A DNA stretch of 64,000 nucleotides from NCBI GenBank assembly GCA_027923505.1, contig BROI01000018.1, positions 496,001-560,000 on the forward strand, given 5' to 3'. A program made the translations under genes and the position numbers. A model generated the notes under the pieces. That model was not told the origin of the DNA. It worked only from the letters and a program-made list of their open reading frames with translations, and ran no database searches. Source of the DNA: Mayamaea pseudoterrestris. Taxonomy: Eukaryota. Of the stretch, positions 12,928 through 51,715 are shown piece after piece (the stretch's first letter is position 1; each line of letters starts with the position of its first letter).

Positions 12928-13028
12928 TTTTTGTTATCGATAGACAACTGACTAGTGTGGCAGTTATGCGCCATGTAACAACAACTCTTCAACCCATAGA
13001 CGTAATCTATTAACTGTAAACACGTGCG

Positions 13029-28694: not shown

Positions 28695-29071
28695 AGGCAA
28701 TAGTACGAAACGAGTGCCAGTGTCAATTACGTCTTTAGGCAATAGTATGAAACAAGTGCCAGTGTCAATTACGTCATTAGGCACTAGTACGAAACAAGTG
28801 CAAGTGTCAATTACGTCATCAGGCAATAATATGAAACGAGTGCCAGTGTCAATTCCGTCATGAGGCAATAGTATGAAACTAGTGCAGTGTCAATTATGCC
28901 GAAAGGCTTTATTATGAAACGAGTGCCAGTGTCAATTACGTCTTAAGGCAATAGTATGAAACAAGTGCCAGTGTCAATTGCGTCATGAGGCACTAGTATG
29001 AAACGAGTGCCAGTGTCAGTTACGTCATGAGGCAATAGTACGAAACGAGCGCCAGTGTTAATTCCCTCAGA
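28695..29071 (+). repeat. 42-bp tandem array 1 (9 units)
   Basis: Units start at 28695, 28737, 28779, 28821, 28863, 28904, 28946, 28988 and 29030. Consensus AGGCAATAGTAYGAAACRAGTGCCAGTGTCAATTACGTCATN. Confidence 0.97.
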
Positions 29072-29279
29072 AGGAGTGTGTGAAAACGCAAGCGCCATAA
29101 GCGAGTCGTCGTCGCAGATGGACAATGCAACAGTGATTTATAATCAAAATAAATCATTCATGTAAATTATAGCTTCGTCTCAAGTAAGGAGCGCGTATCT
29201 TGGTTATACACTAGTACAGCCTTGCTGCATTAGCAGCATCATATCGCTGTCGTTGGGAAGGATTTCAAAGAACAATTGC

Positions 29280-30332
29280 ATGGACCAACTTCAACAGACT
29301 GCTGTTATCGAAGCCATCAGCATGCGGATCCGACGCACCCATCGTCTCCAGACGTCGCATCAACGCATCTCATTCGTTTTCAAATGTGGACTGTTCACAA
29401 TCATTCTTGTCTTTTTTGTTATCAATCGTTACTGCTCCAATTTGCAACGGATTCAGATCGGCGGCGATTCATCGTCGACGAGTCATCTGCGAGGAACGAC
29501 CACCAAGCCACTATTTAATCAAGAAAATATTGCTCAAGAAGCACGAAACCTCATTGTGGTAGCAGGCCATTCGGTAACTACGAATTCTGGTCATTTGCAA
29601 GATGCCAATCGCGATGAACGTGACTGGTACTTGCTTCCCTATCAGCAACATCGGGGACTTCCTGCTGCCATGGTGGCTCACATTCTAGCTGGTCTACAAG
29701 CAGCGGCGCAAGACCCGCAAAGCTTGCTTGTGTTTAGTGGAGGACAGACTAGAGCAATGATGGGACCGGAAAGTGAAGGAGCAAGCTACTATCGAGTAGT
29801 AGAAGCCATGAATCTATGGCCTGCTTTCACCGACGAGGACAAATCCAGTACCAGCAATCATGGAGCCGACAGTGTGAGAGCTAGAACTACCACCGAGGAG
29901 TTTGCAACGGATAGTTTTACCAATTTACTCTACTCGATTTGTCGTTTCAAGGAAGTGACTGGCCAGTATCCACAGAAAATCACCGTCGTTTCGTTTACAT
30001 TCAAGCAAACGCGGTTTCAAACCTTGCATGCACCAGCTTTACTCTGGCCAGAAACTCAATTCGAGTACATTGGAGTCGATCCACCAAGTACGACGGGATT
30101 TGACTTGGAGGAGGCGACTCAGGGCGAATTGGAGCAAGCAGCGAAACCATTTGAAACGGATCCGTACGGATGTCATTCGCCAGTTTTGCAGCAGAAACGA
30201 ATAGAGCGAAACCCATTTACGAGGACGCCGCCCTATGAGCTTTCGTGTCCTGAAATGAAGGACCTGTTGCATTACTGCGGGTTAAACATTATATCGAAAG
30301 AGTTGGTGCCGTGGAAAGACGGTACTGCGTAA
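29280..30332 (+). CDS. DUF218-like membrane-anchored protein (YOR238W-like)
   Basis: N-terminal TM helix, then LIVVAGHSV, LLVFSGGQTR, SEGASY, TEEFATDSFTNLLYSICRF and KITVVSFTFKQTRF. Confidence 0.8.
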   Translation: MDQLQQTAVIEAISMRIRRTHRLQTSHQRISFVFKCGLFTIILVFFVINRYCSNLQRIQIGGDSSSTSHLRGTTTKPLFNQENIAQEARNLIVVAGHSVTTNSGHLQDANRDERDWYLLPYQQHRGLPAAMVAHILAGLQAAAQDPQSLLVFSGGQTRAMMGPESEGASYYRVVEAMNLWPAFTDEDKSSTSNHGADSVRARTTTEEFATDSFTNLLYSICRFKEVTGQYPQKITVVSFTFKQTRFQTLHAPALLWPETQFEYIGVDPPSTTGFDLEEATQGELEQAAKPFETDPYGCHSPVLQQKRIERNPFTRTPPYELSCPEMKDLLHYCGLNIISKELVPWKDGTA

Positions 30333-30893
30333 TGTCGCAACTTGCTTGTTGGAAGAATCTTGCGAGTGCCAAACCTGCTCGCGTTGCTGACAAAATCAAA
30401 CAGAACAATATGGTGTGTCGCCTATGGACTGTCGCTGCCTTCCGGAAAAGCACGACGACACCCAAGGCAGGTCGGGGTTCGATGAAGTTAAGTTGCTTAT
30501 CTTATCGGTTCGCAATTCTGTTCGAAATGGTGTGCGAGTGAGCGTTAGCTGGTCGGTTCGGTGTAAACCTGCAACATGGATCTCTCTCGGAACAGTGCCA
30601 AAGAGTGGTGCTCTGGCAATGCATTTCATTGTCGTTCCATGGGATTGTTCAAGGTCCGTTCGTACCGATGTGTCGAGACACGTTCCACAAATGATAATAG
30701 CATTATTCTTTCTAGTTGCGCACTTGAATTGTGGATTGGGATTGAGTAACGTTCTTGCTTGCTGTTTACGGTATATCGAAACTAGATCCGGTGAGCGCAG
30801 CATTACCTTTCATGTGCCAAGAGGCGACAAATCGCAGTGACTTTTCGACGGTGTCTTTAGAAATGACAACTATCATACTTAAAATTGATGTAA

Positions 30894-31406
30894 TTAGAGA
30901 GCAACGTTTTGGCTCGAGCGCTTCTTAGTGGAAGCATTCTTCAAAGTCGTATTCGATTCAGAAGGAATCGGCGTAAAGGCCATGGCTAACAGCATGGATT
31001 CCTCTTGCTCCAGCTCCTCCCGATCGGCCCAGCAGTCAATTTGATTGTCGTCTTCGTCGGTGGATATTGAAACACCTTGTTCCTTATAGATTGTTAGTGT
31101 TGCTCGGTCCCACCGAACTTGTATAATGTCGTCCCGAAATGGCATTTCGTCTTGCGTATCCAATAGACTTAATCTCGACTCAAGGTGTTCTAGACTCGAA
31201 TTAATAACATTCCTTTGATTCTCTGACAATACTATATTATCCTGCTCGTGAACCTGCAAAAGAATCCGACAAACACATTGCAATTGGTGATAAAGGGCGA
31301 GCTTCTCTATCTGATCGGGCGTGGAATTTGGTGAAAATTCTGATAGCTCATTGACGAGGCAATCGTACAATTTAATGGCATCTGACATCAACATCGGGAA
31401 ATGCAT
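30894..31406 (-). CDS. Hypothetical protein (start uncertain)
   Basis: The C-terminal 170 aa or so of a 233-aa open frame has protein-like helical/acidic composition. No family recognised. Confidence 0.4.
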   Translation of the reverse strand: MHFPMLMSDAIKLYDCLVNELSEFSPNSTPDQIEKLALYHQLQCVCRILLQVHEQDNIVLSENQRNVINSSLEHLESRLSLLDTQDEMPFRDDIIQVRWDRATLTIYKEQGVSISTDEDDNQIDCWADREELEQEESMLLAMAFTPIPSESNTTLKNASTKKRSSQNVAL

Positions 31407-31716
31407 TGTATTAACATGTATAAGTGTTGCGATTGTAAACAGAATGCATTGCAAAGTGCAATAGTAAATGATGATTGGCGCAGTAGGCGCAACATCATCA
31501 ATTTCGTCAATGTGTTGTCGCATCGGTTTCTTGCAGTACCGATGCGACCGATAAAAAGTGATCCGCTTTCCTTCGGACTTGCGCCAAGGCGCCAATGATC
31601 ACGAGGGAGGCGCCAGTCAAAGTCAACAACTCGATACTTCATCTGCTGCCACATCCACCTCTTCGCACGGTATTAGCTTTGTCATTCAAGCTCCTCGTGC
31701 CATCTCGACAAGCGTC

Positions 31717-34362
31717 ATGACTCGACGCGCTCCAAATCAGCTCCACGACCGCCCAGATGGCAACCGCAATGCTGCAGCCGCAGCCGCCGCAGCAGCAGCA
31801 CGAAACCAACCTCGTGCAGACCAATGGAGTCATCGCCCGGTACAAAACATGCGCGATCTGGCGAAAGATAATGATGGCGACATTAAGTGGATCGAGCGAG
31901 TTTTCTGCTATGGAATTCCTTGCATTGGTGTCATTGGTTGCGGCATTCTTTTCGCATACATGTACTACCTTTTCCTACTATATGTGAACAATTTGCTTCC
32001 CGAGAATTGGAAGAATTCATGGCCCGCTCTTCTTGCTGCGATACCTCCATCATTTACTTCGATAGTCGTCGCGTGTGATATGGTTCGGATAAGCTTTCCG
32101 GCTTTTGCCGCGGCTGTATATGTTGCGTTCGGCAACATGCAGCGAGCGATCGTTCACGACATGACAGCAATTTGCGAGTTCATCGTCGGCACTTTCATCA
32201 TCATGGCAACTGGAGTCGAAGACATCATCATTTTACTTTGCATTTCCATCATTAGTATCTGCAGGTGCGCTTTCGGCGTATACATTCTACCGTTTTTATT
32301 TTGGGCAAGGAGCTGCAATCACGTGACGATGAATCGAGCGAATCGCTTGACCTTTACGACGGCAGCGGTACGGTCAGATCTTTGGATGACAACTCAAAGA
32401 AGCTTGCTAGTTGGCTCTCATTGCGTCTCTTTCGGTGAGCGCTGGAACGGCATGGCGGAATGGCTGCTAGACGAGTACGACTTAAAGGTCGGTCTACTGA
32501 TGCTGGAAGTTCGATCCTGGAAAGGCGTTGCCACTCCAGATCATCCGCTCGCAGTACACACTATTCACGAGTCGCAATACGGCATGGAATCGGTGGACCT
32601 CGGCGCAAGCCTCACTGCCGTGGCCAAGTTGACCTGCCTAACTTCTAGTGCCATGGCCGCTTCGACCGGAAATGCGAGGGCTCCGATTACCGCGGGCGAT
32701 GCGCTGCCTGTAGCCTCCGAGAATTTATTATTGAGCGTAATAAACATGTCACTGGACCAAGGCTCAATCGACTCATTCGCAAAAGAAACTGTCCAGGGTC
32801 AACAGATGCCTGTGGAATTTGATGTCAACTCGCCCCCTTTCTTCGACGACCTAGCGGCAGGCGATCACAAGTCAACTGGAGCCATCGCCATCACTTCTTC
32901 ACCGGAAGTCATGGATTGGAGTGCAAGTCAAGCTCTGCGTCCAAAGGTCCATACGGCACTTTCATTGACGTCTGGCCGGAACGCTCACAGCTGGCCAAGC
33001 GTGCAGGGTGACATGGCCAACATCAAGCTCCCAACGAAGAATACAATTTCGGCGGCGCACGATCGTCCGCATAAACTAGCTACGACAATTGCAGACGGGT
33101 TGCGGGGTCCTATCACTGAAGTGCCAGTGCCGTTGACAAGCGCTGGTCCAACTCTTGAGGTGATGGCCAGCGGATTAACTGGATTTGCCAATGCAACTCG
33201 GGTCAATGCTAAGACCAATGGCCACATACCTCCGTCGCCCGATAAAGAGAACCAGACGAAGGCCTTTCCAGGGCACAATGCTCGTTTTGATAAGTTTGCA
33301 CCTCCGTTCGGAGAGAAGGAGTTGGTCGATTCTGCTATCCTCGTACATGACAACACTTTGGCGGCGAAAGGTTGCGAGGATGACACGTTGACTGAAAACG
33401 GCTTTCTAAGCCGTAAAGCTGATCAGAAAGGATTTTGCGGTTCTGACTTCCACGGCGTTGAGTCACCGCAACACGAGTATCTCCCGTTTGCGATAGGTGA
33501 GGGCAATGACGATAACGGGTTTTCGATGTGCAATGATGACGAAGATTCAAACCTCCAAACCGATGACGCGATGGATCAATCCCCAACTGCTCATTCCAAT
33601 GTCGACGATTTTGAAGCTCATAACGACGGGCTAATTAGTAGCGTACCTGCTCATGATGCGGTGTCGCGTCGCTTTTTGAACGGCGTTGGTTTCAACTCAG
33701 ATCGACGATCTATTACTGACTTGAATAAACACTCCAACGATTGCTCATTTCCGAACGAAGGCAATGACAATCCACCAACAGCTTTGGACGATGGTGGTTC
33801 AAAACTGGATACCTCACCTGATTTTAGTGATGCACTATTGCACAAGACGATTCTATACATCGAGAAAGGTGCGTGCCTACCTCGATACTTGACTTGGGGC
33901 ACCGAGTGTCGTTTCCGGAACCAAGGACTGACAGACATCGTCAAGGACATCTTGAAAGGCGGAGGCAAAGTCTTTTACGACGAGCGCTTTATGCCGCATA
34001 ATTTGACAAATTTAAACGACGTTGGATGGGAAAAGACGGGCCGAGCAGGACTTTGCAAAGTTTTTAAGTGCAAACAGAAGAGTAAATCTAGCAAGAAAGG
34101 TACAGGTCGCCATCCGCCCTTTCCCAAAGTGGCTCTTAAAAACTGCGAAACGTTGTACGATAGGCTGATCGTAATTAATTGGTGGCTCAATCTTCCCAGA
34201 GCGGAGCGCCAGACGACATTGGAAAAGCTTGGCGGGAACAGGCATGTGCGCATGAACTTATCTTGTGCTGTTGAAACTTTCGCCGGCGCGATGCCTTCGG
34301 CTTTAAATTCACAGATAGTGGCAGCCGAGCGTTGTCGACTGGAGACACAAAGCGCGTCGTAG
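31717..34362 (+). CDS. Hypothetical protein with N-terminal TM helices, disordered middle and basic C-terminal domain
   Basis: Uninterrupted ORF of about 880 aa from the ATG at 31717, with several hydrophobic helices near the N-terminus. Confidence 0.65.
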   Translation: MTRRAPNQLHDRPDGNRNAAAAAAAAAARNQPRADQWSHRPVQNMRDLAKDNDGDIKWIERVFCYGIPCIGVIGCGILFAYMYYLFLLYVNNLLPENWKNSWPALLAAIPPSFTSIVVACDMVRISFPAFAAAVYVAFGNMQRAIVHDMTAICEFIVGTFIIMATGVEDIIILLCISIISICRCAFGVYILPFLFWARSCNHVTMNRANRLTFTTAAVRSDLWMTTQRSLLVGSHCVSFGERWNGMAEWLLDEYDLKVGLLMLEVRSWKGVATPDHPLAVHTIHESQYGMESVDLGASLTAVAKLTCLTSSAMAASTGNARAPITAGDALPVASENLLLSVINMSLDQGSIDSFAKETVQGQQMPVEFDVNSPPFFDDLAAGDHKSTGAIAITSSPEVMDWSASQALRPKVHTALSLTSGRNAHSWPSVQGDMANIKLPTKNTISAAHDRPHKLATTIADGLRGPITEVPVPLTSAGPTLEVMASGLTGFANATRVNAKTNGHIPPSPDKENQTKAFPGHNARFDKFAPPFGEKELVDSAILVHDNTLAAKGCEDDTLTENGFLSRKADQKGFCGSDFHGVESPQHEYLPFAIGEGNDDNGFSMCNDDEDSNLQTDDAMDQSPTAHSNVDDFEAHNDGLISSVPAHDAVSRRFLNGVGFNSDRRSITDLNKHSNDCSFPNEGNDNPPTALDDGGSKLDTSPDFSDALLHKTILYIEKGACLPRYLTWGTECRFRNQGLTDIVKDILKGGGKVFYDERFMPHNLTNLNDVGWEKTGRAGLCKVFKCKQKSKSSKKGTGRHPPFPKVALKNCETLYDRLIVINWWLNLPRAERQTTLEKLGGNRHVRMNLSCAVETFAGAMPSALNSQIVAAERCRLETQSAS

Positions 34363-35342
34363 CTGACCGAATCAAAATAGTGTTCAGTTACTGTACACGG
34401 ATCAACATCCAACGCAGATTGTAGACGGGCCATCACGGAGCAGCGGAAAATACTGGTAGAGGAGTTCGGAGCGGTTGAACAGCAGTTGAAACATTTCCAC
34501 GCAAGTCTTGGAGATCCACCAATATGAAGCCCAGAGTTTAACTATTTGTCAACTATTAGCATGAGAATTACTCTGCAACAAATTCTGCGATGCGCAAAGC
34601 TTGTATACGCGTTGTATACGCGTCTCGTCAATATGTGGCGTCGGAAGGCGTCTCAGTGTATTCCATGCAGTAGGTGACAAAGTATGGCACCCTTCGGCAG
34701 AGCTGGTCGCCAACACAACAAATGCTTAATAAAAAAAGACGCAAAGCTCACATCGTCGCAATTGAGATGCTCTTGGCAGAATGGCCTGGCATTATTCGTC
34801 CTCGAAAAACCTATTCTCTCATGTCAATTGTTGAGTGTGGCGAATGATAAGAGGAGTGTCCCTGTTGGCTCCTTCGGGGCGTGACGCGTGAAAAAAAACA
34901 ACTATATATCGTGATACGGGCGGCAGTAGTGCTTCATTCGGACGTTAATTGTCGCCTTTCATTGCCTTGTGATGAGGCGCTAATGCGCGGCAAGTTCGAC
35001 TGATTGTCGAGTGCCGATCTGGGTCCAAAAACAATCGCACCAGAATTTTATTTCGCTAGGCACTCGCCACCTGATGGCTTGTCACATCCGGCAGCACCAT
35101 CGATCATCGAACATCGAACTGAATAAGGATGACTCGACCGAATTCCATCAAATTATCCGACGACTCTACGAGCTGAAATGCCGCATTTACGGTTTATATC
35201 TACCGGTAGCTATTTTCTGAAAACGTTGTAGTGGTTCAAGTTTGGCACGCTATGGTGGAGGAGCAGCAGCTGCGGGACCACCACGAATGTTGGTCAACCT
35301 GGAACAACGTCAGAGCATTATTTTTGGTATCAAACCAATCAA

Positions 35343-35596
35343 GCCGGTGAATCTGCGTCAAAAGGCAATAGTACGAAACGAGTGCCAGTGTCAATTACAA
35401 CACCAGGCAATAGTATGAAACAAGTGCCAGTGTCAATTACGTCACAAGGCTGTAGTATGAAACAAATGCCAGTGTCAATTACGTCATCAGGCAATTATAC
35501 GAAACAAGTGCCAGTGTCAATTACGTCATTCGGCAATAGTGTGAAACGAGTGCCAGTGTCAATTACGTCATAAAGGCAGTAGAGTATGGAACGAGT
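35343..35596 (+). repeat. 42-bp tandem array 2 (5 full units plus partial ends)
   Basis: Units start at 35363, 35405, 35447, 35489 and 35531, with a partial unit at 35574. Same consensus as array 1. Confidence 0.97.
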
Positions 35597-38109
35597 CGAA
35601 AACCAAGAGCAAACACGCGATGCACATCACACAACATTCTACACCTACCAGCATTACCACAGAAGCCTCTTTCTTTGCTCATTGACGTATTTTTAACTAA
35701 TCAAAGTATAGCGGAGCCAGCAATTTAATCTCTTTGAGCGCCAGGATTAACATGTCCCGCTGCAGTCACTTTGCGAGGCTCTTTGTTGCCAGATACCAAA
35801 AAAATCTCCGACATCGATGCAGAAACTGGCCTAAAGCCCTGTTCGATGAATTCTATACGTAGGCCGGCCCTATTCATAATGCTATGCTGTTTATGATGGA
35901 TCCGTGGAGCTTCATTTAGCAGCCGATTTTGCTCCCACAATGGGGCTAAAAGCTTGAATCGTCGATGCCGATGTCGACACTCAGGACCAAACACCCAAAG
36001 GTTCAAGCACCGAAATAATGATCGTAATTGAAACAGGCCGAATACGATTAAACGTTGAAATTCGCGCAGTGCGTCATGGTGACTGGCAAGACGTTCCGTA
36101 GAAATTTGGAAGTCTGACGCCAGCGCCTGCCGCCACTGTCAAGCAACGTGCAACTGCATTCTTGCAGCTCTTTGAATCATCCTTTCTATCGGACCACCGC
36201 CGTCTGCCTATATTGGTGTTTTGCTGATTGGTATGAAGGCGCGATTTATTGGTATTGCTCCTTGTCGAGTCTCAGTGCTATAAAGCTCGATGAGCAAAGG
36301 CCGTGCAAGAATCCCCAGGAACTTGATTGAACGCCAAAGACCCACGAATTGTTCATCTTCGTTTGGGTAATCTATTCCATCCAGGTTGTCTGTACTGGAT
36401 CTCTTTACGCCGATTGATGCCATTTTCACAGAATGCTGCAGCCCGCGGCGTTCTTTCTGGATGTGTTGGTTAATCAAGGGGCCATAAAAGGATGTAATTG
36501 GAGACTACAGACGATACAACGAACGATTGGCTCATCGATATAGTTGACCGATAATTATATACATCCAATTTGCAATAATACTTAACAAGCACCACCATTG
36601 AGGCAAGCACCGCGGCGATTGACGAGAAAGAAGCATCTCCGTTCTGGGGGACTGACAGCTCGTAAAAGGGTATCTCTATCATACTTAGAAGTCCACCCTT
36701 GCTGGCGATTGCGCGCCAATGACTGCATACGGCGGACTTTTTTGCAGCTATGTGGCGCAATATCCTTGGTGTATTGAGCAACGGTATGCGCAATCTGTAC
36801 ATCCAATGACTGCATGGATGACATACGCAGTCTCCAGCTGCATACGTCTATCGGGAACCAGCCAGTACATAATGTCACATGGCGCAGCGCAGCGGCCGAT
36901 CGTTCATCGTTGGGATTGCCAAAACGAATCAACACCATACCCCTACAGATCCTCCGCGAGCCTGCTATATGTGTTTACATAGTGGAATTATATTTGACAA
37001 TAATCGATCCTATGTACATAGTATGTTATCATATCTGGCGCATTAAATCATCGTAGGCGCCTCTCCGACGGAACTAGCCAATAGCTGAACACGCGTACAG
37101 CTTGACTAATGCACCAAGACCTACCGATAGGAGCGGACAACGTCACTTGCAACAAGGTCTATATTAAGTAATCGCAGAACTATAATATTATCATCTAACA
37201 TCCTGTCAAGCTCTTTCATGCTGACACTGACGCTGACCTATGCGGCGGATGCAGCAGACTGTTGTAAGACCAAGTCAGGAAGCCGTACAAGTCTTAACGG
37301 GAAATCAAGAGGGGCGTTTGATCTCGAACTCAGCGTCTGCAATAGACCGGTCCACGCTGCATCCTGCGCGCCTGCTGGCAAGCTAACGGCGTCGCAAATT
37401 TTGGCTGCAACTTTTCTGCTCCATACCTGACGAGCAAACTAGTAGGTGACACCAATAGAAGCAGCAACATTGGTACTTGTAGAGCTTCATAAATATTAAG
37501 ATCTCTTCTTGGTGCTTGTGTTGCTGCGTCGTAGTCACCTACTAAACGAGGTAGCCGAAACCCGATGACCATGGCGTTGCAATCTGCGCGAGCGAATGCA
37601 TCTGAATGACAGTGCCTCGCTTGATAAGACTTGTTTCTTGCTTCTCTCTATAATTGTATGGAAAAGTTGTTTTCGCTATGATGAGCAGGCGAGTGCACAA
37701 TAAAACAGTCAAAACGCTGAAATACGATATCACTCTGACCAGGAGAAGTGCACAACCATTTCGACTTCAGAAACATGGCATTATTGCCCTATTGCCGTCG
37801 GTTTTTGCTGTTGAAATATTTACGTCAATCAATATGGGGAATTGGTTTGGCTGAAATAAGCAAAGAGCTTGTTGTCAAGAGCGGTGCGAGGTGGTCGCGT
37901 GTCGTCTAGTCGTGTGTTGCGTGTTGCCATCCTGCAAGTCTCTAAAGCGCTAATGATGTTCGTTATATCGATGCTTTGACAACTACTTATATCGGTAAAA
38001 GGGTGACAATAGTAGAAGTTACATGACCGCCCATGATGAAAGGATGGATGTAGTCCGCTTGCGAGCGATATCGGTTGCGTCGTTTTTGCTGACCGGCTTA
38101 TTACAGTCA

Positions 38110-38351
38110 GTTTTTACTGCACTTGTTTCACTACTGCCTTTATGACGTAATTGACGTTGGCACTCGTTTCATAGTAGTGCCTTCATGACGATATTGACAC
38201 TGGCACTCGTTTCATACTATTGCCTAATGACGTAATTGACACTGGCACTTGTTTCGTATAATTGCCTGATGACGTAATTGACACTGGCACTTGTTTCATA
38301 CTACAGCCTCATGACGTAATTGACACTGGCACTCGTTTCGTACTACAGCCT
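38110..38351 (-). repeat. 42-bp tandem array 3, reverse orientation (5 full units plus a partial)
   Basis: The plus strand shows repeated TGACGTAATTGACACTGGCACTYGTTTCRTA, the reverse complement of the array 1/2 unit. Confidence 0.97.
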
Positions 38352-38515
38352 TGATAAAGGCACGACTACTTCGGGGAAGGAGACGACGGACGAACGTCGC
38401 CGCGATGGCGCGGCAGTTGCGCGGACCGAATATTCATCACACAAGGTTGCACCAAAATTACTCTTCGTCAAGGCATTGTAAGCGATTATTTTGTAGCAGT
38501 TAGCAAGCAGCAACG

Positions 38516-42701: not shown

Positions 42702-45097
42702 CTACTTGCCTGCTGCGGAGCGAATCTGCTTGGCCTTTGTCCGAGCGGCGCGTTCGCGAGCGCCACTTTCCATTAGTTCCTTGCGCAGGCGAACTGTTTT
42801 GGGAGTCACTTCTATCATTTCATCTGAGCCCTACAACAAGAAATAAAAACGAAAATTGTTAGCAAACGACCAAAACATCCCCTTGTCGATTCGATATATA
42901 TGTACGTACCATGTAGCCAATGAGCTCCTCCACCGACAATCGCTTTGGAGGCGGGAGACTAGACTTTTCATCTTTGCTTTGTGTTCTGAAAGAAAGGATC
43001 GACGAAAGAAATGCGTATGAGCGTAATGTTAGCACTTACACATAAGCAATATATCCAGTAGAACTGGCACTGCACTCACCTCATGTTTGTAAGCTCCTTG
43101 GCCTTGACGGGGTTGACTTCCAAGTCGCCAATCTTGGAGTTTTCGCCAATCACCATGCCCGGATAAACCATTTGCTGTGGCTCAATAAACAGCGTCCCTC
43201 GTTGCGCCAAATTATCCAAAGCAAAGGATGTCGCTTTACCAGATGCGTTGCTCACAAGCTTGCCCTTTTCCAATGCCGTCCCGAGGTTGCCTGCATACTC
43301 CCGATCCTCCAGAAACAAGTGATTCACCACGGCGCTTCCCTTTGTGGCCGTGGCAATCTCGCCATTAAATCCAAGCAAGCCTCGCGTTGGAACCTCCAAA
43401 ACCAAGCGCGCCTTGCCGTCTGCCATGACTTCGCTCGACATTAATATACCCTTGCGATCCCCCGTCAGTGCACTCACCACCGTCGACGAATAGTTAACGT
43501 CAACGTCAATCGTCACCTCCTCGTATGGCTCGAGCGTTTTCTTGGTATCGGGACAAGTCTTTGTCAAAATACGAGGCGGCGAAATAATCATTTCGAAACC
43601 TTCGCGTCGCATGGTTTCAATCAAGATTCCCAATTGAAGTTCACCTCGAGCAAAGACTGTTGTCTTTTCAACGTCCGTTTCGGAAGGCTTGACCAGCAGT
43701 GTCACGTTATTGTCCGTCTCCTGCAGCAGTCGCTGCCGAATCTGGGAACTGGCAATCTTGGTACCTTCCTGTCCAGCCAATGGTCCAGTATTGGAACCAA
43801 AGTCCATGGCCAAGGTTGGCGGCGCCAGTGGCGGCGTTTGAATGGGTGCTGGCACTGGATTGGACGTGCTGGTCAGTGTATCGCCGACGGCCATGGCATC
43901 GGGAATGCCCGATAGTTGGACAATGTCACCCGCGTAGGCTGTCGCTTCGTCAAAGGGAGTGCGGCGAATACCTTTCGAAACGAAAATGCCGGAAACAGTG
44001 GCAGTGGAAGGTCCACTGATGGATCCGCCGTCGCGCCTCAGCAGTGTGACTGGATCGTTAATGGTGACACATCCCGAAGCAATCCGGCCAAGGCAGGTGC
44101 GGCCAAGGTATGGATCGTAGCCGACTGTCACTGCCGCCAAGCTAAAGGGATCCGACGCAAAGGCTTCTCCTTCCAGTGCCGTCTCTTCCATTGAATCAGT
44201 TGCATCATCACTGTAAATTGTCACGATTGGTTCCGGAATCTCGTCGACAATGGCCTGCAGCAAATTCATCATGCCATGTTGCGCTTTTCCATCACTGGCA
44301 CTGGTCGCATCATACACATACCCTTCCTCGGCTAGTTCCAGTGCCTCGAGCGGGTCCGTCGTGACCCATCCGTTGCGAGCCGACGCGTAGGCTGTCACAT
44401 AGTCCAATTGCTGCGAGGTAGCCCCCAGCGCATGAAAGAGTGTTTGGAGTGCCTGCTCGGTATCGCCCGAATCAAGCGCCGCCAGTGCCTCTGGCTTGTC
44501 GCATTTGTTCAACACGACCAGTGGCTTGAGTCCCAGCGCCAATGCTCGATTGAGTACGTATTTGGTTTGACTCTTGGGACCTTCGACAATGTCCACCACG
44601 AGTAAGACGCCGTCGACCAAGGACAATATCCTGTCCACTTCTCCGCAAAAGTCTGCATGTCCAGGAGTATCTACAACGTTAATAATTGTTGTTGCACTTG
44701 CAGTATCTTGCTGCTTGTAATCAAGACGCGTGACTTTGGATGTAATGGTGATTCCTCGCTCCTTTTCCAAGTCGCCCGAATCCAGCAAGCGATTGGTACT
44801 GCTACTGTTGGCGTCGTTGCTATTGCTAGAGGCGGAATGTAGCAATCGATCCACGAGAGACGTCTTTCCGTGATCAACGTGCGCAATGACGGCAACGTCG
44901 CGAATGCCAAGCCGGCGTTTCGTGCTTGGTGTGATCAAGCAGTCGTCGTCGGAAGAAGCAAGTGGCGACGCGGAGTGGAAGCGAAAGGATCGACTGGCAT
45001 GTCTCGAAAGGAAGATTTGTCCAAAAGTCCTTTTACTATAGCTTGATATTGCCAGGCAAGGTCTCATCATGCTGCTGACTTTCAGAAACGCAGTCAT
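42702..45097 (-). CDS. typA: Organellar translational GTPase TypA/BipA; 3 exons (45097-43080, 42985-42910, 42830-42702)
   Basis: Motifs [36 protein letters not shown] and [17 protein letters not shown]. The spliced C-terminus reads ELTNMR|TQSKDE...[27 protein letters not shown] presequence is present. Confidence 0.95.
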
Positions 45098-45310
45098 GGT
45101 GATTGGTGCAAATTGTGCGACGAAGGAATTTGTGAGACGAATCTTGCCAAAATGCGAAAGAATGAACGGCTCTCGGAGGTACGTCGGACCGGTACTCGTA
45201 TGGCGCGGCGCGGCAAGGCGCGGTTGCGTGCTCCACCATGGCACATCACTCCAACAACTCGTTACTCCGCATACCCTTCCACAAATAGCGACACACCATC
45301 AACTTGCACC

Positions 45311-48300
45311 ATGCCTGCTACGTCTGTTGCCGCCGTTGATTCAGTAAAAGAAGCTGTTTTTCAAGCGGCAGCCGACGCTGGTAACCTGCACGAGTGGATC
45401 TTGACATCAATCTCCACTCTACTGCTCAAGGACAAAGGCAAGGTTAGCAATAACATAGTATCATCCTTGACGCAAGAAGAGCGAGACTTTTTGGATAAGA
45501 TTGTTTCTTTGGTCTTCAGTCGAGTCGATGGCGACAATGACAGCAGTTTGGCTTCGTCGTCGTCATCCTTGCATACGTTGATCAATGTTCTTTGGCTACT
45601 TGCTTGCAACGTCAATGCGGGCGACTCTTCAAAGCCATCAGAAGATGCTTTGACTACGACTAGAAATGAGCAACTGGCTACTTACATGCTGCAATCCATA
45701 AAGTCCGAGTGCATTGCAAAAACTGACGAAAACTTGACTCAAAGCGTTCACGACTTGCTGGTGGCGCACATGCCAGCCGCGCTGCTGCAATCGTCGGGCT
45801 GGATTTTCCAGTCAAGCTTACTCGACAAGAAACTCAAGCTATACAATACGCAATCAAACTACAAGCAAGTCAAGTACAACATACTGGCCGAGCAGTCGGA
45901 AGGATACTCCAAGTACTTGGCATTGTTAAACCATGAATGTATATTTCATACATCAACGACAAGTACAGACGCAACTTTACTCAAGGAGCGCGTCTTGACA
46001 GCGATTGGAACCTTTCAGCTTGATCCAGTTCGGTGCCTTGACTTGCTCACTGATGTTTTGCTGTGGCGGCAGCAGCAAATAGATACTGAAACGAGGCAAC
46101 ATGGAGTCAAGATGACTTTAACAAATCTCATCGTCATGATGCAGGCATGTTTTCAACCACTACTTTGTCACTTGCCCGACTTGCTAGTCTTTAAACTTTC
46201 TGCAGCAAGCGACGAAAAGCGGCAATCTAGTTTGTTCATCGTCATGGCAATGCTAGTGGAGCAGAAACTCTTGAACGCCAAGCAAATGGTGCGCGTTCTC
46301 TTGGCATCATCGAAACTTGCCAGTGTTTCAGAAATTTACGAAACAATCTACAAACACATTGAGCAAGGTTTACAAACCATGGGTCGCATCAAGCTGCAGA
46401 ATAGTAGCAATACAGAAGCTGACGCGGAAAAACAGGAACAGGACATGAGGCACAAGCAGTTGCTGAATGAGCTTGCGTCAAGTCACGCGGTCCGATTTCT
46501 ACTGGAATTACTGCGGAGTGATAACAAACACGGTTTGGCGCTGCTATCAACTGGAAACGTTTTTGACGACGACAACGAATGGAGCCAATTGTGTTTTCTG
46601 CTGCCCGAGACGATTGGAGTGGCCATTTGCGACATTATACAGCAAGAAATACAACAATTCCTGCCGCCGACTAGATGTGGCTTTGACCAGTCGGCGTTAG
46701 CTAAAGATATGACTGTTGATGGTGACACTGATGTGGAGATGCATTTGGAGAATGATGCTTCGTCGCTGTCATTGGAAGAAATTACAGCCAAAATTTCTGC
46801 TCCTCTTGATTGTATTTACGGATCGGGGTGCATTGTGCTCCGGCCAGTCTTGTACACGCAACTCTGCCGCGTGATTGCTCATAGACTTGCTACAATGTCC
46901 GACATATCAGATTCGGTTGTGCATTTGATCAAGTCGTTCCTTTTGCCAAGTCTCAGTCTCTTCTCGATGAACCCAACGTTGGCACATGAAGTATGGGAGA
47001 TGCTTAGACATCTTCCATATCAGACGAGATACGCCCTTTACGATTCATGGCGAGGCAAGGGGTTGGAGCGCGCCGGTCTTGGGGATTTAAACAAACCGCT
47101 GTGGCTGATCGAGAGCGAATTTAAGGCTGGCAAGGACATTCGCTACGCCCTCAAGCGCTTGTCTAAAGATACAATTCGCGACATGAGTAGGCACATTGCC
47201 AAGGTCTGTCATTCGCACCCACTGGTTGTGTTTACAAGCATTCTTGGCCAAATTGAGTCATACGACAACCTCGTTCAGGTCATGGTAGATGCTTTGCGCT
47301 ACGTGACACCACTTGGTTTAGATGTATTGTCGTGCTGCATACTCGATCGGCTAAGCAAAAATAATGCTGATGACCGGGCGAATCGTAATCGGCTCAAGGA
47401 CGACGGAGTAAACGTTTCGCAGTGGCTGCAGTCGCTGGAAGCGTTTGTTGGATATTTCTACAAACAATTTCCTTTCGTTGACTTCCAAGGTATACTTGGG
47501 TATCTGGTGACGAGGCTCAAGGACGGGCATGTCATGGAGCTTGGCTTATTGCGCGCTTTGCTAAAAACGTCGGCTGGTTGGTCGTTTGCGGACTATGCGC
47601 CTGCGTCGAGTCTATCGCATACGCAGTTAATGGGCCGGTCGGGAAGCCATTTGCTGAAAAGAGAGACAATGAGTTTTGGTATTGTCGACCATATCAATCA
47701 AAAGTCATCGCGAGAGGTTCGACGTGTTCTACAGACTGACAATGTTGGAGTCTGCCTCTTGATTTTGCTCGCGCAGGTCCGACACCACATAGTTTTTGGC
47801 AAGGTCAAGTCGGATGGTCACGAGAAACCTATAAAATTGGTTGCTTATTTACTCGACACGTGTCAAGTTACAATTGCAATGCTCTTGGACTTCCTTTCAT
47901 TTCCTGAAGGTGACGGCGCACTCACTCGGTCGCCGATTGAAGTGTATACGAAAGCTCTACCCTCACTCAAGGACCTCTTCAGCGTCCATGAGCTAGATGC
48001 GGCGACATGTTGGATGCTTTATCGTCCGGTACAGCACGCCAAAGTAACTGACAGTATGACGAAAGGATCGTTAACATCACCTGATGGTACTGATTTGATG
48101 CTTCAAACCAATGCATGGGACCACATTACTCCTGATCTTTTTGAAGCGTTTTATGCACATGCATCCTACGACATCCAGTGCCCTGAAGATATTTACAAGT
48201 CAGAGATTCATCGTTTGGAGAAGGAGAGTGAAAGACAAGCGCAGCAGAAGCCAGATCCGGCGAATGCGGTACCGGACGACCGGGCGAAGGAGGCAGCAAT

Positions 48301-49633
48301 GCGACTCAGCAAGGACTTAGCTATACATCAAGAGCATGTTGTTCATGTCCGTCGAGTGCTAGAGTCCAATCGGGGATCTTTATTAAAAATGGAAGACGTC
48401 TCCATTGACGCAATGACAACGTTTTTATGCTCTTGTATCTTTCCGCGGTGCATGCAAGGGCCAGACGACGCTATTTATTGCGCTCAGTTTGTAGCGTTGC
48501 TACACGTGCATGATACTCCAGGGTTTGGCACCCTGTGCTTGTACGATTCCATTATCACACACATGTCCCGAGCGCTCTTCGGTCTGACTGAAGGAGAAGC
48601 TGCCAATCTATCAATTCTCCTGCTGGAAGTGTGGAAGAATGTTAGTCGATGGCGTTATGACGAAGAAGCATTCAACAACGAAATGGCTGGCAGGAATGGT
48701 TCGTTCATGCCTGGAGGGGATGGCGTCGTTGAGGTCACGTTTGGCAAGTACGAGGAACTTTATAACAAATGGCATGCATCGGTTGGAGCCGTTCTCGTCG
48801 GTGCATTAAAGTCATCAGAGTACATTCATATTCGAAACTGCCTGATAGTGTTGACGCGGCTTGTGAGCGTGTTTCCCACGCGACCTGGTTTAGGCAACAA
48901 ACTAATCAGGACGCTCGAGCCACTGGCCAGCGAGGAAACAAACTCGTTTGCAGACATTCGAGCAGCTGCCGCCGCGTACAGTCAGCAACTAGTCCGGGCC
49001 CGAGATGATGGAGTTTGGCGAGAAGAATCTACTGCTTCAGTGGAGGCAAGACAACGAAAACAGGAAGCAGCTGTTGCGGCTCGACAGAAACAAGCGCAGC
49101 TGCAAATGGAAGAAATTAAACTTGAATCTGAAAAGATTGGCAAGGAACTTGGACCCGATCGACGGAGGGACGATCGTCGGCGTGTGATTGGAAAACCTGG
49201 CGAGCCTGTAGATCATGAACGACGGCCCGCTCCTACTTCAGGCATGGAGTTGACGAATCGAATGATCGAGACACGAGTGCAAGGACCTTCTCCTCGACCC
49301 GATGATGGACGTAGCGGTCGATTGAATGAACCACGTCGGCAGGGACCTTCTTCTCGACCTGATGATGGGCGGAGCGGCCCTACAGTTCAAGACTTTGCCA
49401 CCATGGCGGCTGACGCGTCTCGTAATCTGGGCAATCGATTTCAACGTCCTGATGAAGGTCATCGGCGAGCAGATGGAGGAGGAACAAAACGAAGTCGGCC
49501 TCCATCGCCTGAGGAAGGTGAAAGTGCCGAACGAGTCGCCAGCAAGCGCAGCCGATTGGCACCTGCTGCTGAGGTAGAGCGATCCAACATTGGGAACGGT
49601 AGACGCAGGGGCAGACCAGGCAGACGGAAATAA
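45311..49633 (+). CDS. THOC2: THO complex subunit 2
   Basis: Motifs YKQVKYNILAEQSEGYSK, IGTFQLDPVRCLD, LPYQTRYALY, LKRLSKD, QIESYDNL, RLKDDGVNVSQWLQSL, CIFPRC and EYIHIRNCLIVL, followed by a charged tail. Confidence 0.93.
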   Translation: MPATSVAAVDSVKEAVFQAAADAGNLHEWILTSISTLLLKDKGKVSNNIVSSLTQEERDFLDKIVSLVFSRVDGDNDSSLASSSSSLHTLINVLWLLACNVNAGDSSKPSEDALTTTRNEQLATYMLQSIKSECIAKTDENLTQSVHDLLVAHMPAALLQSSGWIFQSSLLDKKLKLYNTQSNYKQVKYNILAEQSEGYSKYLALLNHECIFHTSTTSTDATLLKERVLTAIGTFQLDPVRCLDLLTDVLLWRQQQIDTETRQHGVKMTLTNLIVMMQACFQPLLCHLPDLLVFKLSAASDEKRQSSLFIVMAMLVEQKLLNAKQMVRVLLASSKLASVSEIYETIYKHIEQGLQTMGRIKLQNSSNTEADAEKQEQDMRHKQLLNELASSHAVRFLLELLRSDNKHGLALLSTGNVFDDDNEWSQLCFLLPETIGVAICDIIQQEIQQFLPPTRCGFDQSALAKDMTVDGDTDVEMHLENDASSLSLEEITAKISAPLDCIYGSGCIVLRPVLYTQLCRVIAHRLATMSDISDSVVHLIKSFLLPSLSLFSMNPTLAHEVWEMLRHLPYQTRYALYDSWRGKGLERAGLGDLNKPLWLIESEFKAGKDIRYALKRLSKDTIRDMSRHIAKVCHSHPLVVFTSILGQIESYDNLVQVMVDALRYVTPLGLDVLSCCILDRLSKNNADDRANRNRLKDDGVNVSQWLQSLEAFVGYFYKQFPFVDFQGILGYLVTRLKDGHVMELGLLRALLKTSAGWSFADYAPASSLSHTQLMGRSGSHLLKRETMSFGIVDHINQKSSREVRRVLQTDNVGVCLLILLAQVRHHIVFGKVKSDGHEKPIKLVAYLLDTCQVTIAMLLDFLSFPEGDGALTRSPIEVYTKALPSLKDLFSVHELDAATCWMLYRPVQHAKVTDSMTKGSLTSPDGTDLMLQTNAWDHITPDLFEAFYAHASYDIQCPEDIYKSEIHRLEKESERQAQQKPDPANAVPDDRAKEAAMRLSKDLAIHQEHVVHVRRVLESNRGSLLKMEDVSIDAMTTFLCSCIFPRCMQGPDDAIYCAQFVALLHVHDTPGFGTLCLYDSIITHMSRALFGLTEGEAANLSILLLEVWKNVSRWRYDEEAFNNEMAGRNGSFMPGGDGVVEVTFGKYEELYNKWHASVGAVLVGALKSSEYIHIRNCLIVLTRLVSVFPTRPGLGNKLIRTLEPLASEETNSFADIRAAAAAYSQQLVRARDDGVWREESTASVEARQRKQEAAVAARQKQAQLQMEEIKLESEKIGKELGPDRRRDDRRRVIGKPGEPVDHERRPAPTSGMELTNRMIETRVQGPSPRPDDGRSGRLNEPRRQGPSSRPDDGRSGPTVQDFATMAADASRNLGNRFQRPDEGHRRADGGGTKRSRPPSPEEGESAERVASKRSRLAPAAEVERSNIGNGRRRGRPGRRK

Positions 49634-49683
49634 GTATATGGCGAGGTTGCTGCCCTCTTTTTAATAATCAACGTCTTTTTATT

Positions 49684-51198
49684 TTAATTTTTAGCGGTTC
49701 CACTTCCAAACTGCAAAACTCCAAACCGCCCATTCACCATCCAATTATCATCCATATCTTTGGCACGTTGAATCTCAGTCGCTGCCATGCCACAGCCAAT
49801 CTCCGCTTTGAGTGTTCTTAACGCACAAATTGGACAAGCAAAGTATGCTCCAACCACGTCCTCAAAATCTGCCGTCATGTCCCACTTGCAGTCGCCCAAT
49901 AGTCGTCGATAGTTGGCGTCACCCTTGACAAAAGCCAAGTCACACTGACTTGCCATGTTTGATCGAAGCGGCTCTGTCATGTCCCACATGGCGAAGGGTT
50001 GGCACCAAAAAGGATTTTCATTGCATTGCCATTTCCCGTTTTCCAAAAGTTCTTTCCAAACTTTGCCAGCTGCATGCGAGCCGGGATACTTTTTTGCATC
50101 CAGTTTGGCGTAATAGTCGACAGTTTCAAGCAGATCCTTTTCCAGTGCATCTGATACAAACGTGGGGTGCGACTTTAGCTGAAAGGTCACCACCTTGGCA
50201 ATGCCCGACTCCACCAAGTACTGCGCTAAGGCCAGATCCGTCACCAATTCAAAGCCAGCATTGTCGACGATAATGTCAACAATGCCGCCACCCTTGGCAT
50301 GCAGCTGAGAGCAAAGTGCAACTAGTTGTTTCGAGTCATCGGCCAACAGGTTCTCATTCTTGGCCAGCATGTCGCTCACATTGGTCGTGGACAATGAATC
50401 ATCATCATCGTCGTCGCTATGAATGGCCGCCGGCCATAGACTCAAGTCCATGCGGTTGCCCCAGAGCGCCCAATCGGCCGCCACCAATATTCCTGCCTCG
50501 ACATTGGCATTGGACACCAACTGTGGCAACCGTTGCAACATTGGTTCCGCCTGCGCGACGGACGATGCGAGTCCATCTCGTTTGGCCTTGATGAATGGAT
50601 CATACTTGTAGCCGACGCTCGATTCGTCAAAATATCCAAGCACCTGCATGAGACGTCTGTAAACATAGAATTCAGCCACCATCCATGGAGCTGTCAACCA
50701 AGTGGCTTGGTGCTCGACGAGTGGTTTCAGTATCTGTTCGTTCCATTCGAGAAACTCCTTGGGCTGCGTGTCGGACATGTCTGTCAAGTACGACAAAGGA
50801 AAATTTGCAGCGTTGCGTAGTTCATTTCGCAGTTCATTATATCGAGCCAGTATTTCTGCAAATTCAGGGGATTCGAATGTTTCTTGATTGTCCTTGTAGG
50901 TTCGCTCAAGGATTTCTTCGTCAATGCGTCGACTCATGGTATCGTAGGCCCACGTTCCAGGAACGTCGGAACAAATTGGATCAGGAATAGGAAGTCGAGG
51001 AATAAACTTGTGACTTGAACTAGCGGGTGATGCCATGCTGCAACGAATGATATGAGGCAGGATATGAGGTAATGAATGATGATGATGATGGTGCCGGTGC
51101 AAAGCTGAAGCAAAAATTGCTGGAGAGACCCAAGAAGTTGCTGATTTTAGAACGACAAACGAGATCAGTAGTCGACTGGGTAGGGAATTGATTGTCAT
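49684..51198 (-). CDS. Damage-control phosphatase ARMT1/DUF89 family, with bipartite plastid-type presequence
   Basis: Motifs WLTAPWMVAEFYVYRR, YDPF, ALWGNRMDLS, IIVDNAGFELVTDL, HPTFVSDA, FVKGDANYRRL and ALRTLKAE. The signal peptide ends ATS-W. Confidence 0.92.
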   Translation of the reverse strand: MTINSLPSRLLISFVVLKSATSWVSPAIFASALHRHHHHHHSLPHILPHIIRCSMASPASSSHKFIPRLPIPDPICSDVPGTWAYDTMSRRIDEEILERTYKDNQETFESPEFAEILARYNELRNELRNAANFPLSYLTDMSDTQPKEFLEWNEQILKPLVEHQATWLTAPWMVAEFYVYRRLMQVLGYFDESSVGYKYDPFIKAKRDGLASSVAQAEPMLQRLPQLVSNANVEAGILVAADWALWGNRMDLSLWPAAIHSDDDDDDSLSTTNVSDMLAKNENLLADDSKQLVALCSQLHAKGGGIVDIIVDNAGFELVTDLALAQYLVESGIAKVVTFQLKSHPTFVSDALEKDLLETVDYYAKLDAKKYPGSHAAGKVWKELLENGKWQCNENPFWCQPFAMWDMTEPLRSNMASQCDLAFVKGDANYRRLLGDCKWDMTADFEDVVGAYFACPICALRTLKAEIGCGMAATEIQRAKDMDDNWMVNGRFGVLQFGSGTAKN

Positions 51199-51285
51199 GC
51201 TATATAAAGTATACATGGATCAACGCCAATGGAGCTTTGAAACGAGGCCGAGTGCACCCCGCAACTTTGTTCGGACGAGTCGGCA

Positions 51286-51715
51286 TGCTAGTGAAAACTA
51301 CGTCAACAGGCAATAGTATAAAACGAGTGCCAGTGTCAATTACGTCACAAGACAATAGTACGAAACGAGTGCCAGTGAAAACTGCGTCATACGGCAATAG
51401 TATGAAACGAGTGCCAGTGAAAACTGCGTCATGAGGCCATTGTAAGAAACGAGTGCCAGTGAAAACTGCGTCATCCAGAAACGTTGTGAAACAAGTGCCA
51501 GTGTCAATTACGTCATAAGGCAATAACGTGAAACGAGTGCCAGTGTCAATTACGTCATCAAGGCATTAGTACGAAACAAGTGCCTGTGTCAATTACGTCA
51601 TTAGGCAATTGTATGAAACGACTGCCAGTGTCAATTACGTCATCGAGGCACTATTATGAAACGGGTGCCAGTGAAAACTGTGTCAGCATGGCATAAGTAG
51701 CATTGAACGAGTGCC
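51286..51715 (+). repeat. 42-bp tandem array 4 (9 full units plus partial ends; two unit subtypes)
   Basis: Units start at 51308, 51350, 51392, 51434, 51476, 51518, 51561, 51603 and 51646. Subtype A has GTGTCAATTACGTCA; subtype B has GTGAAAACTGCGTCA. Confidence 0.97.

Follow-up and report, generated by a model that had tools for sequence, protein, structure and literature searches.

The 64-kb window of Mayamaea pseudoterrestris DNA analyzed here carries four head-to-tail arrays of one 42-bp unit, with a period of 41–43 bp, distributed over three intergenic regions. In our view, this freshwater diatom probably has a dispersed family of non-coding satellite (minisatellite) DNA to which the four arrays belong. 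What is repeated is the array as such, with no larger element around it; copies of the family extend far outside the window, and arrays 2 and 3 illustrate that an array can be copied as a block. The family looks undescribed yet ordinary, in that it resembles a known kind of repeat and not a new mechanism.

Four arrays of one unit between genes

Tandem Repeats Finder returned four period-42 arrays in the window (Table 1). A search of the same 64 kb with an nhmmer profile of the unit recovered 28 full units (E ≤ 1.5e-8) as well as two edge fragments (E 0.028 and 0.057), and the two methods together bear out the proposal of an earlier note on this DNA that the same 42-bp unit builds four arrays with about 28 full copies. 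All other nhmmer matches in the 64 kb had E ≥ 0.4, and there are therefore no solo units outside the four arrays. The core of the unit, GAAACRAGTGCCAGTG, occurs 27 times when up to two mismatches are allowed, every time within the arrays, against an expectation of 0.04; none of 100 shuffles reached 27. A higher-order repeat in array 4 was considered and rejected, as periods 84 and 126 are no better matched there than period 42. When decayed units were sought past the ends of the arrays, scores above those of 200 shuffles were obtained for the 3′ part-units of arrays 2, 3 and 4 and nowhere else. A borderline case is a possible old unit at 51238–51254, 22 bp from the ATG that starts the ARMT1-like gene, with a score of 22 compared with a null maximum of 24.

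Table 1. Arrays of the 42-bp unit in the window, the spacer between arrays 2 and 3, and the neighboring genes
Feature	Position	Strand	Composition	Tandem Repeats Finder call	Neighboring genes	Distance
Array 1	28694..29070	+	9 units of the 42-bp type, including one of 41 bp at 28862-28902	28695-29063, 8.8 copies, 85% matches	ORF 27904-28560 (-); ORF 29280-30332 (+, DUF218-type protein)	133 bp from ATG at 28560
Array 2	35343..35596	+	5′ part-unit (~positions 23-42), 5 full units, 3′ part-unit to ~position 22	35356-35571, 5.1 copies	ORF 31717-34362 (+)	array 980 bp downstream
Spacer between arrays 2 and 3 (context only)	35597..38115	.	ORF-poor, single-copy			
Array 3	38116..38352	-	5 full units, 3′ part-unit	38119-38351, 5.5 copies, opposite strand	Yip1-domain gene 38516-39538 (+)	array 163 bp upstream
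Array 4	51286..51716	+	5′ part-unit, 9 full units (4 of the CCAGTGAAAACTG variant), 3′ part-unit	51299-51673, 8.9 copies; 51286-51679 at periods 84 and 126	ARMT1-like gene 49684-51216 (-); ORF 52007-54991 (+)	69 bp from ATG at 51216

The arrays had been described as intergenic, and all four indeed lie outside ORFs of at least 150 aa. Each reading frame of each array contains at least one stop, so the arrays are non-coding, and a coding repeat, for which 42 bp would correspond to 14 codons, is ruled out. Array 2 is mostly spanned by one open frame of 113 codons from stop to stop (35232–35573). The junction codon of this frame reads T-N-A, its middle letter N being the hypervariable position 1 of the unit, at which 16 of 27 units have A or G. 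A hidden gene between arrays 2 and 3 was also sought and rejected: nine of the ten ORF translations from 33975–38113 matched no Pfam family (E ≤ 1), and the tenth gave a noise match to FAD_binding_8 at E 0.064.

The sequences around the arrays are unrelated to one another. In a blastn comparison of the eight 600-bp flanks, the longest common match is 17 nt and the best E value 0.028, which agrees with the initial impression that the flanks are not obviously similar, and no shared terminal sequences were seen at the array ends. The neighboring bins lie at single-copy depth, which identifies the array itself as the repeated entity. Both ORFs that flank array 1 are conserved diatom genes. Arrays 1 and 4 occupy divergent gene gaps of 720 and 791 bp, whereas five of the six divergent gaps that have no array measure 55–316 bp and the sixth 1930 bp. 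All three array-bearing gaps contain at least one gene start, compared with 15 of the 24 ORF-defined gaps; this difference is not significant (~0.24), yet it does not speak against a promoter role.

Unit anatomy and relations among the arrays

The alignment of units requires 84 parsimony changes over 42 sites, and these changes fall very unevenly. The linker (positions 42, 1 and 6–13) has accumulated 4.6 changes per site, compared with 0.94 in the core (positions 14–29) and 1.2 in CGTCA (positions 37–41), such that the boxes change 4–5 times less per site than the linker. The index of dispersion of the site rates is 2.63, a value equalled in none of 10000 equal-rate simulations. The conserved and variable blocks proposed from the first inspection are thus real, and the uniform per-position variation that had been named as one mark of an ordinary repeat is absent. 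The 16-bp box (GAAACRAGTGCCAGTG) and the CGTCA box are near-invariant, and the linker positions are close to saturation. Of 27 units, 19 have an exact 16-bp box and 22 an intact CGTCA, and the longer ACGTCA, which reads TGACGT on the reverse strand, is intact in 16. The CpG within ACGTCA is kept in 24 of the 27 units, compared with 9 and 17 for the other two CpGs. By its letters, the unit thus contains a putative site of a known kind, the bZIP motif TGACGT. Where a unit in the window deviates within a box, other copies of the family mostly carry the consensus letter; position 28734, for example, reads A in 3584 of 3677 depth.

Units of the same array resemble one another no more closely than units of different arrays do, with a difference in identity of −0.006 (permutation p 0.82), and adjacent units are 84% alike compared with 82% for non-adjacent ones. 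Local homogenization of units within arrays is therefore not observed, and the arrays look like samples from a shared pool as opposed to local amplifications. Such homogenization is common in classical satellites, but short dispersed arrays need not show it.

Arrays 2 and 3 form an inverted pair, 177 nt long and 93% complementary, with 2593 nt between the arms. Their unit variants follow in the same order and in opposite orientation around the single-copy spacer, with the fourth unit of array 2 (A2_4) identical to the third of array 3 (A3_3), and A2_3 95% identical to A3_2. This shared order, inverted around unique DNA, demonstrates that an array can be copied as a block.

The unit had also been called hairpin-bearing, a description that is weakly supported. 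A 6-bp stem is found only in the GGCACT variant (4 of 27 units), which folds at −7.2 kcal/mol with a z score of −3.18. For the consensus-type unit, the fold has −3.7 kcal/mol (z −1.69), and equally good folds arise in 15 of 200 shuffles. The unit contains a small dyad, GGCA/TGCC, and an A·G mismatch in the stem is retained in most units. The ratio of observed to expected CpG is 0.93–1.13 in the arrays and 1.09 in the rest of the window, a similarity that gives no sign of long-term methylation decay.

Abundance beyond the window and the search for relatives

Read against public contigs of the same organism (runs X1–X3), the arrays display a k-mer depth excess of more than 100-fold, where depth is summed over contigs and is no copy number, and about 800–1100 distinct contigs match the unit. 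We conclude from these two observations that the unit family is repeated far beyond the window. In X1, three array bins reach depths of 11863–16638 compared with 50–190 in non-array bins, and the corresponding ranges are 2188–3207 versus 13.6–47.3 in X2 and 556–799 versus 0.21–13 in X3. Contig records that fit two places number 1122 of 1524 in X1, 877 of 1207 in X2 and 782 of 1115 in X3. Even with each of their contigs placed on every unit, the 23 units in the covered stretch would supply at most about one-thirteenth of the depth. One long block, or a few of them, could account for most of the excess, in place of many dispersed arrays. One class of X1 contigs joins units of opposite strands (joint 28722/28852, depth 322), and head-to-head arrangements of units must therefore occur elsewhere. 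We also note that the arrays are places where contigs break. In X1, the spacer separating arrays 2 and 3 has a depth of 55.6–78, compared with ~95 for the neighboring genes. In a fourth run, X4, whose kind is not on record, the arrays have no excess of depth (0.43–2.1 versus 0–13.8 elsewhere), with only 5 of 45 records fitting two places.

Searches for relatives returned nothing that would place the family. A 27-nt degenerate pattern of the unit gave 0 matches in metagenome_contigs, viral_contigs and genome_contigs (prokaryote). A looser double-core pattern matched at least 120 metagenome loci, and among the matches listed none fit the unit profile at E ≤ 1e-3, so that we regard the double-core matches as chance. 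Rfam gave 0 matches at E ≤ 1 over 28000–52500, and a known RNA family was rejected accordingly. Full-text searches of the literature returned nothing on a dispersed diatom satellite of the 42-bp kind. In the M. pseudoterrestris genome paper, Table S3 lists 0 satellites and 7.4% unclassified repeats, and the words "satellite" and "tandem" have 0 occurrences in its main text (PMC9724779). The statement in the earlier note that the family was not recognized therefore stands after Rfam, three sequence collections and the literature.

Origin of the arrays and comparable systems

A mobile or gene-converted minisatellite, as had been suggested at the outset, fits the abundance beyond the window, the unrelated single-copy flanks, the inverted copies in arrays 2 and 3, and the uneven variation among sites. 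New arrays would arise from a fragment of an existing array that is inserted at a broken or open site, presumably through ectopic repair or because extrachromosomal circular copies re-insert. In this compact genome, such sites would mostly be the nucleosome-poor gaps at gene starts. The length of an array would then shift by slippage or unequal exchange. The 16-bp and CGTCA boxes may be constrained in each unit, via protein binding or the needs of propagation, and the linker would drift freely; effects on adjacent promoters would be a by-product. Two observations weigh against the satellite reading. The arrays are without the local homogenization typical of classical satellites, and a saturated linker beside near-invariant boxes fits purifying selection on binding sites better than neutral drift.

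The conserved boxes might bind a protein. Among them is the "aureo box" TGACGT, and a protein-binding role is for this reason conceivable. At its fullest, this idea would make the arrays selected, multimerized transcription-factor platforms, in which a bZIP site and, for a second factor, a 16-bp box recur every 42 bp (some four turns of the helix) and which would act as enhancers or boundaries in bidirectional promoters. The intactness of both boxes, their low rate of change and the preferential retention of the CpG in ACGTCA all favor such platforms, as does the fact that the constancy of the boxes is not explicable by within-array homogenization, which is absent here. Arrays 1 and 4 lie in divergent gaps, and arrays 1, 3 and 4 begin 69–163 bp from an ATG. 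According to excerpts of PMC4937327, TGACGT is the site bound by the aureochrome bZIP factors of stramenopiles, diatoms included, and repeated boxes at fixed spacing are proposed to be enhancer-like, which resembles the unit described here. The aureo boxes in those excerpts are unlike ours in being few, 100–150 bp apart and set in unique promoter DNA, whereas here they recur every 42 bp within a repeat family. A family depth excess of more than 100-fold is hard to square with gene-specific regulation, however, and the neighbors (DUF218, Yip1, ARMT1-like and three unknowns) have no evident common function. The nearest ORF to array 2 is ~1 kb away, outside the arrays the window shows no enrichment of TGACGT (27 observed versus 30.7 expected), and the placement is not significant with four arrays. 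On balance, we regard regulatory platforms as rather unlikely. Quite unlikely, in our judgment, is a bolder combination in which the 16-bp box and the CGTCA/TGACG box would be sites of a bZIP/aureochrome-type factor plus a partner, possibly the very protein by which the arrays are cut or copied. In that case the family would act as a portable module of many sites that spreads itself, inserts into diatom promoters and rewires bidirectional gene pairs, with the boxes held constant by selection for binding and not by homogenization, and the linker drifting to saturation.

Foldback transposons have long inverted ends built of tandem subrepeats, and arrays 2 and 3 are similar in that they form inverted tandem-repeat arms around a spacer. 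The arrays might on this basis be remnants or internal parts of a non-autonomous transposon, either of the foldback type or a Helitron- or Crypton-associated repeat. The 93% complementarity of the two arms around 2.6 kb and the opposite-strand joint in X1 contigs would suit such an element, as would the position of the array ends, five of eight of which fall at unit positions 22–28. This clustering is not significant once the choice of that interval is allowed for (~0.2), however, and is biased because the core is the most recognizable part of the unit. Unlike in a foldback element, no target-site duplication was seen on the outer sides of arrays 2 and 3, and arrays 1 and 4 each stand alone, in direct orientation. 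No repeated interior or mobility gene was found, the spacer (35738–37738) having single-copy depth and no Pfam family, and no common sequence extends outside the arrays. A transposon origin thus seems distinctly improbable. Satellite families elsewhere yield small RNAs or seed silent chromatin, and the small dyad of the unit could be read as a hint of the same. The unit-length small RNAs raised in the earlier note find no support here. We consider a role of this kind very improbable, given that 15 of 200 shuffles match the fold of the common unit, that Rfam is silent, that the CpG content of the arrays resembles that of the window and that the arrays adjoin conserved genes.

Diatom promoters and repeat landscapes are poorly charted. 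A short satellite that occupies the narrow intervals between gene starts in a compact genome would be a handy marker of strain variation, and would offer a natural test of the tolerance of such genomes for insertions into promoters. Should the boxes bind a factor, the unit would be a ready-made multimerized element for the engineering of diatom promoters.

Returning to the satellite reading, blocks of the 1.688 satellite reportedly occur in the X-linked euchromatin of Drosophila, a description credited to Sproul et al. in 2020. That system too consists of short dispersed satellite arrays near genes, for which spread by re-insertion of circular DNA and interlocus gene conversion has been proposed; it differs in its setting, an animal sex chromosome, where it is linked to small RNAs and to the compensation of dosage.

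The R6 repeat of the apple MYB10 promoter is likewise a promoter minisatellite, arranged in tandem, with a factor-binding motif in its unit, although, as outlined in excerpts of PMC11321683, it is a recent expansion of a local site at a single locus, whereas the diatom unit is found at four loci in the window and probably at many more, and its motif is a putative binding site. The arrays also resemble Cast1–Cast9, the euchromatic satellite DNAs of Tribolium castaneum (PMC11610590; also PMC3411249 and PMC4537270). Their units of ~170–360 bp and arrays to >10 kb differ from the 42-bp unit and the 5–10 units per array in the ~30-Mb compact diatom genome. Circular DNA, genome-wide maps and expression effects have been demonstrated for Cast1–Cast9, and the diatom family is known from its sequence. 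In the excerpts of PMC11610590 that describe them, insect euchromatic satellites lie in gene-rich regions, display no regular junction pattern and are found in circular DNA. As in the diatom, with its four separate arrays in the window and probably many more, one tandem unit forms separate arrays in gene-rich DNA with no regular junctions or common flanks. Arrays are exchanged between loci there, as they may be in the diatom, circular DNA or ectopic copying is the proposed means of spread in both cases, and an influence on neighboring genes is suspected (PMC11610590).

The 42-bp arrays and their abundance

Tandem Repeats Finder recovers four separate arrays of a 42-bp unit in the window, and the 16-nt core of the unit, searched with at most two mismatches, occurs 27 times, every time inside these arrays, versus 0.04 occurrences expected from shuffling. 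When 27 in-register units are combined into a profile and run against the 64 kb, 28 full units emerge (E ≤ 1.5e-8), along with two edge fragments. The rest of the window holds no match to the profile better than E 0.4, and thus neither solo units nor further arrays. The 42-bp array feature is real. An earlier note on this DNA, which had described four dispersed intergenic arrays of one hairpin-bearing unit, gave the correct array coordinates and unit count.

Positions of the 42-bp arrays (Tandem Repeats Finder) and of minor features in the window
Feature	Position	Strand	Unit (bp)	Copies
Array 1	28695-29063	+	42	8.8
Array 2	35356-35571	+	42	5.1
Array 3	38119-38351	− (opposite)	42	5.5
Array 4	51299-51673	+	42	8.9
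Possible decayed unit	51238-51254			
Segment skipped by contigs	29121-29243			
Segment replaced in contigs	36625-36814			
Further differences in contigs	up to 36944			
Longer tandem repeat	20695-21012		174	1.8
Two overlapping repeats within an ORF	62786-62910		27	

We matched public contigs from three runs (X1, X2 and X3), whose organism is the same or nearly identical, to 28401-48400 and summed word depth per bin, three bins holding arrays and 27 holding none. The array bins reach 11863-16638 in X1, against 50-190 in the other bins, 2188-3207 against 13.6-47.3 in X2 and 556-799 against 0.21-13 in X3; a summed depth of this kind is not a copy number. Many contig records fit two places in this segment (1122 of 1524 in X1, 877 of 1207 in X2 and 782 of 1115 in X3). 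Its 23 units could account for at most an estimated 1/13 or so of the array depth and cannot yield so many distinct contigs, so the genome must carry many more copies of the unit than the 28 in the window; the further copies may be spread over numerous short arrays or concentrated in a few long blocks. Depth is at the single-copy level in the spacer that separates arrays 2 and 3 and in every neighbouring bin, and the eight 600-bp array flanks have nothing in common beyond 17 nt; the repeated entity is the arrays alone. A unit variant with CCAGTGAAAACTRCGTCA, found in four of the nine full units of array 4, is common elsewhere, as the loose ends of contigs show. Searches of metagenome, viral and prokaryote collections gave no relative of the unit.

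A probable dispersed satellite family and its proposed spread

The arrays most likely represent a dispersed euchromatic satellite (minisatellite) family, which appears to be undescribed so far, though of a known kind. The Mayamaea pseudoterrestris genome paper reports 19% repeats, chiefly Ty1/Copia; in its Table S3, satellites are entered as 0 and unclassified repeats as 7.36% (PMC9724779). Full-text literature searches gave no dispersed satellite family of this kind in diatoms. The closest parallel that we found described is that of the Cast satellites of Tribolium, which are reported to form arrays that lie in gene-rich DNA and lack regular junctions, to be exchanged between loci and to be present in circular DNA, their spread being proposed to occur via insertion of circular DNA or via transposons (PMC11610590). 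By analogy, pieces of array may be pasted into breaks or open chromatin to found new arrays, and in so compact a genome the insertion sites would mostly be gaps at gene starts.

Units of one array share a mean identity of 0.78-0.86, and units of different arrays one of 0.81-0.87 (difference −0.006, permutation p 0.82), and adjacent units are 84% alike versus 82% for non-adjacent ones. Given this lack of excess identity within arrays or between neighbours, no array looks recently amplified in place; each looks like a sample drawn from a common pool that was already diverse. Arrays 2 and 3 stand apart as an exception and show how copies arise. In inverted orientation they can be aligned in register (a 93% match across 177 nt), with the same order of diagnostic unit variants, one identical pair of units and another pair 95% alike. 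This likeness stops at a common 3′ part-unit, and unique DNA separates the two arrays; what was copied, therefore, was an entire piece of array without its flanks.

At the 3′ side, arrays 2, 3 and 4 finish in a part-unit that breaks off in or just past the core. At the 5′ side, a part-unit starting at about position 22-23 opens arrays 2 and 4; the start of arrays 1 and 3 is near position 1. Five of the eight array ends fall at unit positions 22-28, within the conserved core GTGCCAGTG. Such clustering would hint at a defined cut site, but with these eight ends it is not significant after allowing for the post-hoc window, and edge phase is biased, the core being the most easily recognised part of the unit.

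Anatomy of the unit and a possible binding role

The majority consensus of the unit contains about 30 well-kept positions. Parsimony on a UPGMA tree built from the 27 units gives 84 changes, at 4.6 per site in the linker (positions 42, 1 and 6-13) versus 0.94 in the 16-bp box (14-29) and 1.2 in the CGTCA box (37-41). The index of dispersion of these changes, 2.63, was reached in none of 10000 equal-rate simulations. Position 1 is near random (A 11, C 6, G 5, T 5). Two of the most variable sites reflect CpG transitions, with CG surviving at positions 13-14 in only 9 of 27 units and at 18-19 in 17 of 27; the CpG within ACGTCA is kept in 24 of 27. The arrays give no sign of long-term methylation decay, their CpG observed/expected ratio (0.93-1.13) being as in the rest of the window (1.09). 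The hairpin consists of a 4-bp GGCA/TGCC stem, and the −3.7 kcal/mol of the common unit is matched by 15 of 200 shuffles. A 6-bp stem is formed only in the four GGCACT units, and since most units keep the stem mismatch, there is no visible selection on the stem.

Near-saturated linkers adjoining almost invariant boxes, with local homogenisation absent, raise the alternative that the boxes may bind a protein, serving either the host or the repeat's own spread. Where a unit in the window deviates within a box, other copies mostly carry the consensus letter (at 28734, a depth of 3584 out of 3677). TGACGT occurs in 16 and CGTCA in 22 of the 27 units (one box), and PMC4937327 describes TGACGT as the aureo box, the target of diatom aureochrome bZIP factors. 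Box constancy without homogenisation, the consensus letter in other copies and the aureo box together make a protein-binding role a live if unlikely rival. A gene-specific role is disfavoured by how abundant the family is, by neighbouring genes whose functions are unrelated and by the distance of array 2 from any ORF. Within the satellite family that we favour, the conserved-box pattern and the promoter setting are the features of note.

Other identities were rejected or found no support. Stops in all frames rule out a coding repeat, and Rfam gave 0 matches to a described RNA family. For a foldback or other transposon, we saw neither shared ends nor target-site duplication, and the DNA between arrays 2 and 3 is single copy with no recognisable coding.

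Genes, gaps and other repeats

The window is compact eukaryotic DNA, dense in ORFs. Over 291 residues, the ORF at 29280-30332 shows 100% identity to a protein whose given source is Mayamaea pseudoterrestris, and its relatives are DUF218-type diatom proteins. This public protein (294 aa) aligns from ORF residue 60 on, with its first three residues differing; the annotated 5′ end therefore differs from that of the longest ORF, through either another start or a small 5′ exon. Diatom relatives were also found for ORFs 27904-28560 and 52007-54991, and a Yip1-domain gene plus an ARMT1-like gene make up the remaining neighbours of the arrays.

Array 1 fills the divergent gap 28560-29280 (720 bp) and array 4 the divergent gap 51216-52007 (791 bp); of six array-free divergent gaps, five measure 55-316 bp and one 1930 bp. 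Arrays 2 and 3 share an unusual ORF-poor gap, array 3 ending 163 bp before the Yip1 ATG. Each of the four arrays has a gene start in its gap, but 15 of the 24 ORF-defined gaps contain one; four arrays are too few to show a preference.

The shared gap (34363-38515) comprises 4.15 kb without any ATG-started ORF of at least 150 aa, the rest of the window being tightly packed. Inside it, the X1-X3 contigs carry 88 other letters in place of 188 bp, followed by more than 30 further differences, both substitutions and short indels, that extend to 36944. A second, highly divergent haplotype or strain allele therefore exists there. Between array 1 and the DUF218-type gene, X1 and X2 contigs skip 121 bp, which points to a structural variant in the promoter region of that gene. 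A possible decayed unit, TGAAACGAGGCCGAGTG, shares 14 of 17 letters with the core, and the ARMT1-like gene has its ATG just 22 bp away. The unit scores 22, a borderline value (the shuffles reach at most 24); if it is real, the leader of this gene would be made of old array sequence.

Two other repeats were observed. The 174-bp repeat (88% matches) lies where ORFs 19216-20553 (+) and 21133-22689 (−) converge, in the gap between them, and is unrelated to the 42-bp unit by profile search. The overlapping 27-bp tandem repeats, each of nine codons, lie within ORF 61784-62959 (−) and are probably a coding repeat.
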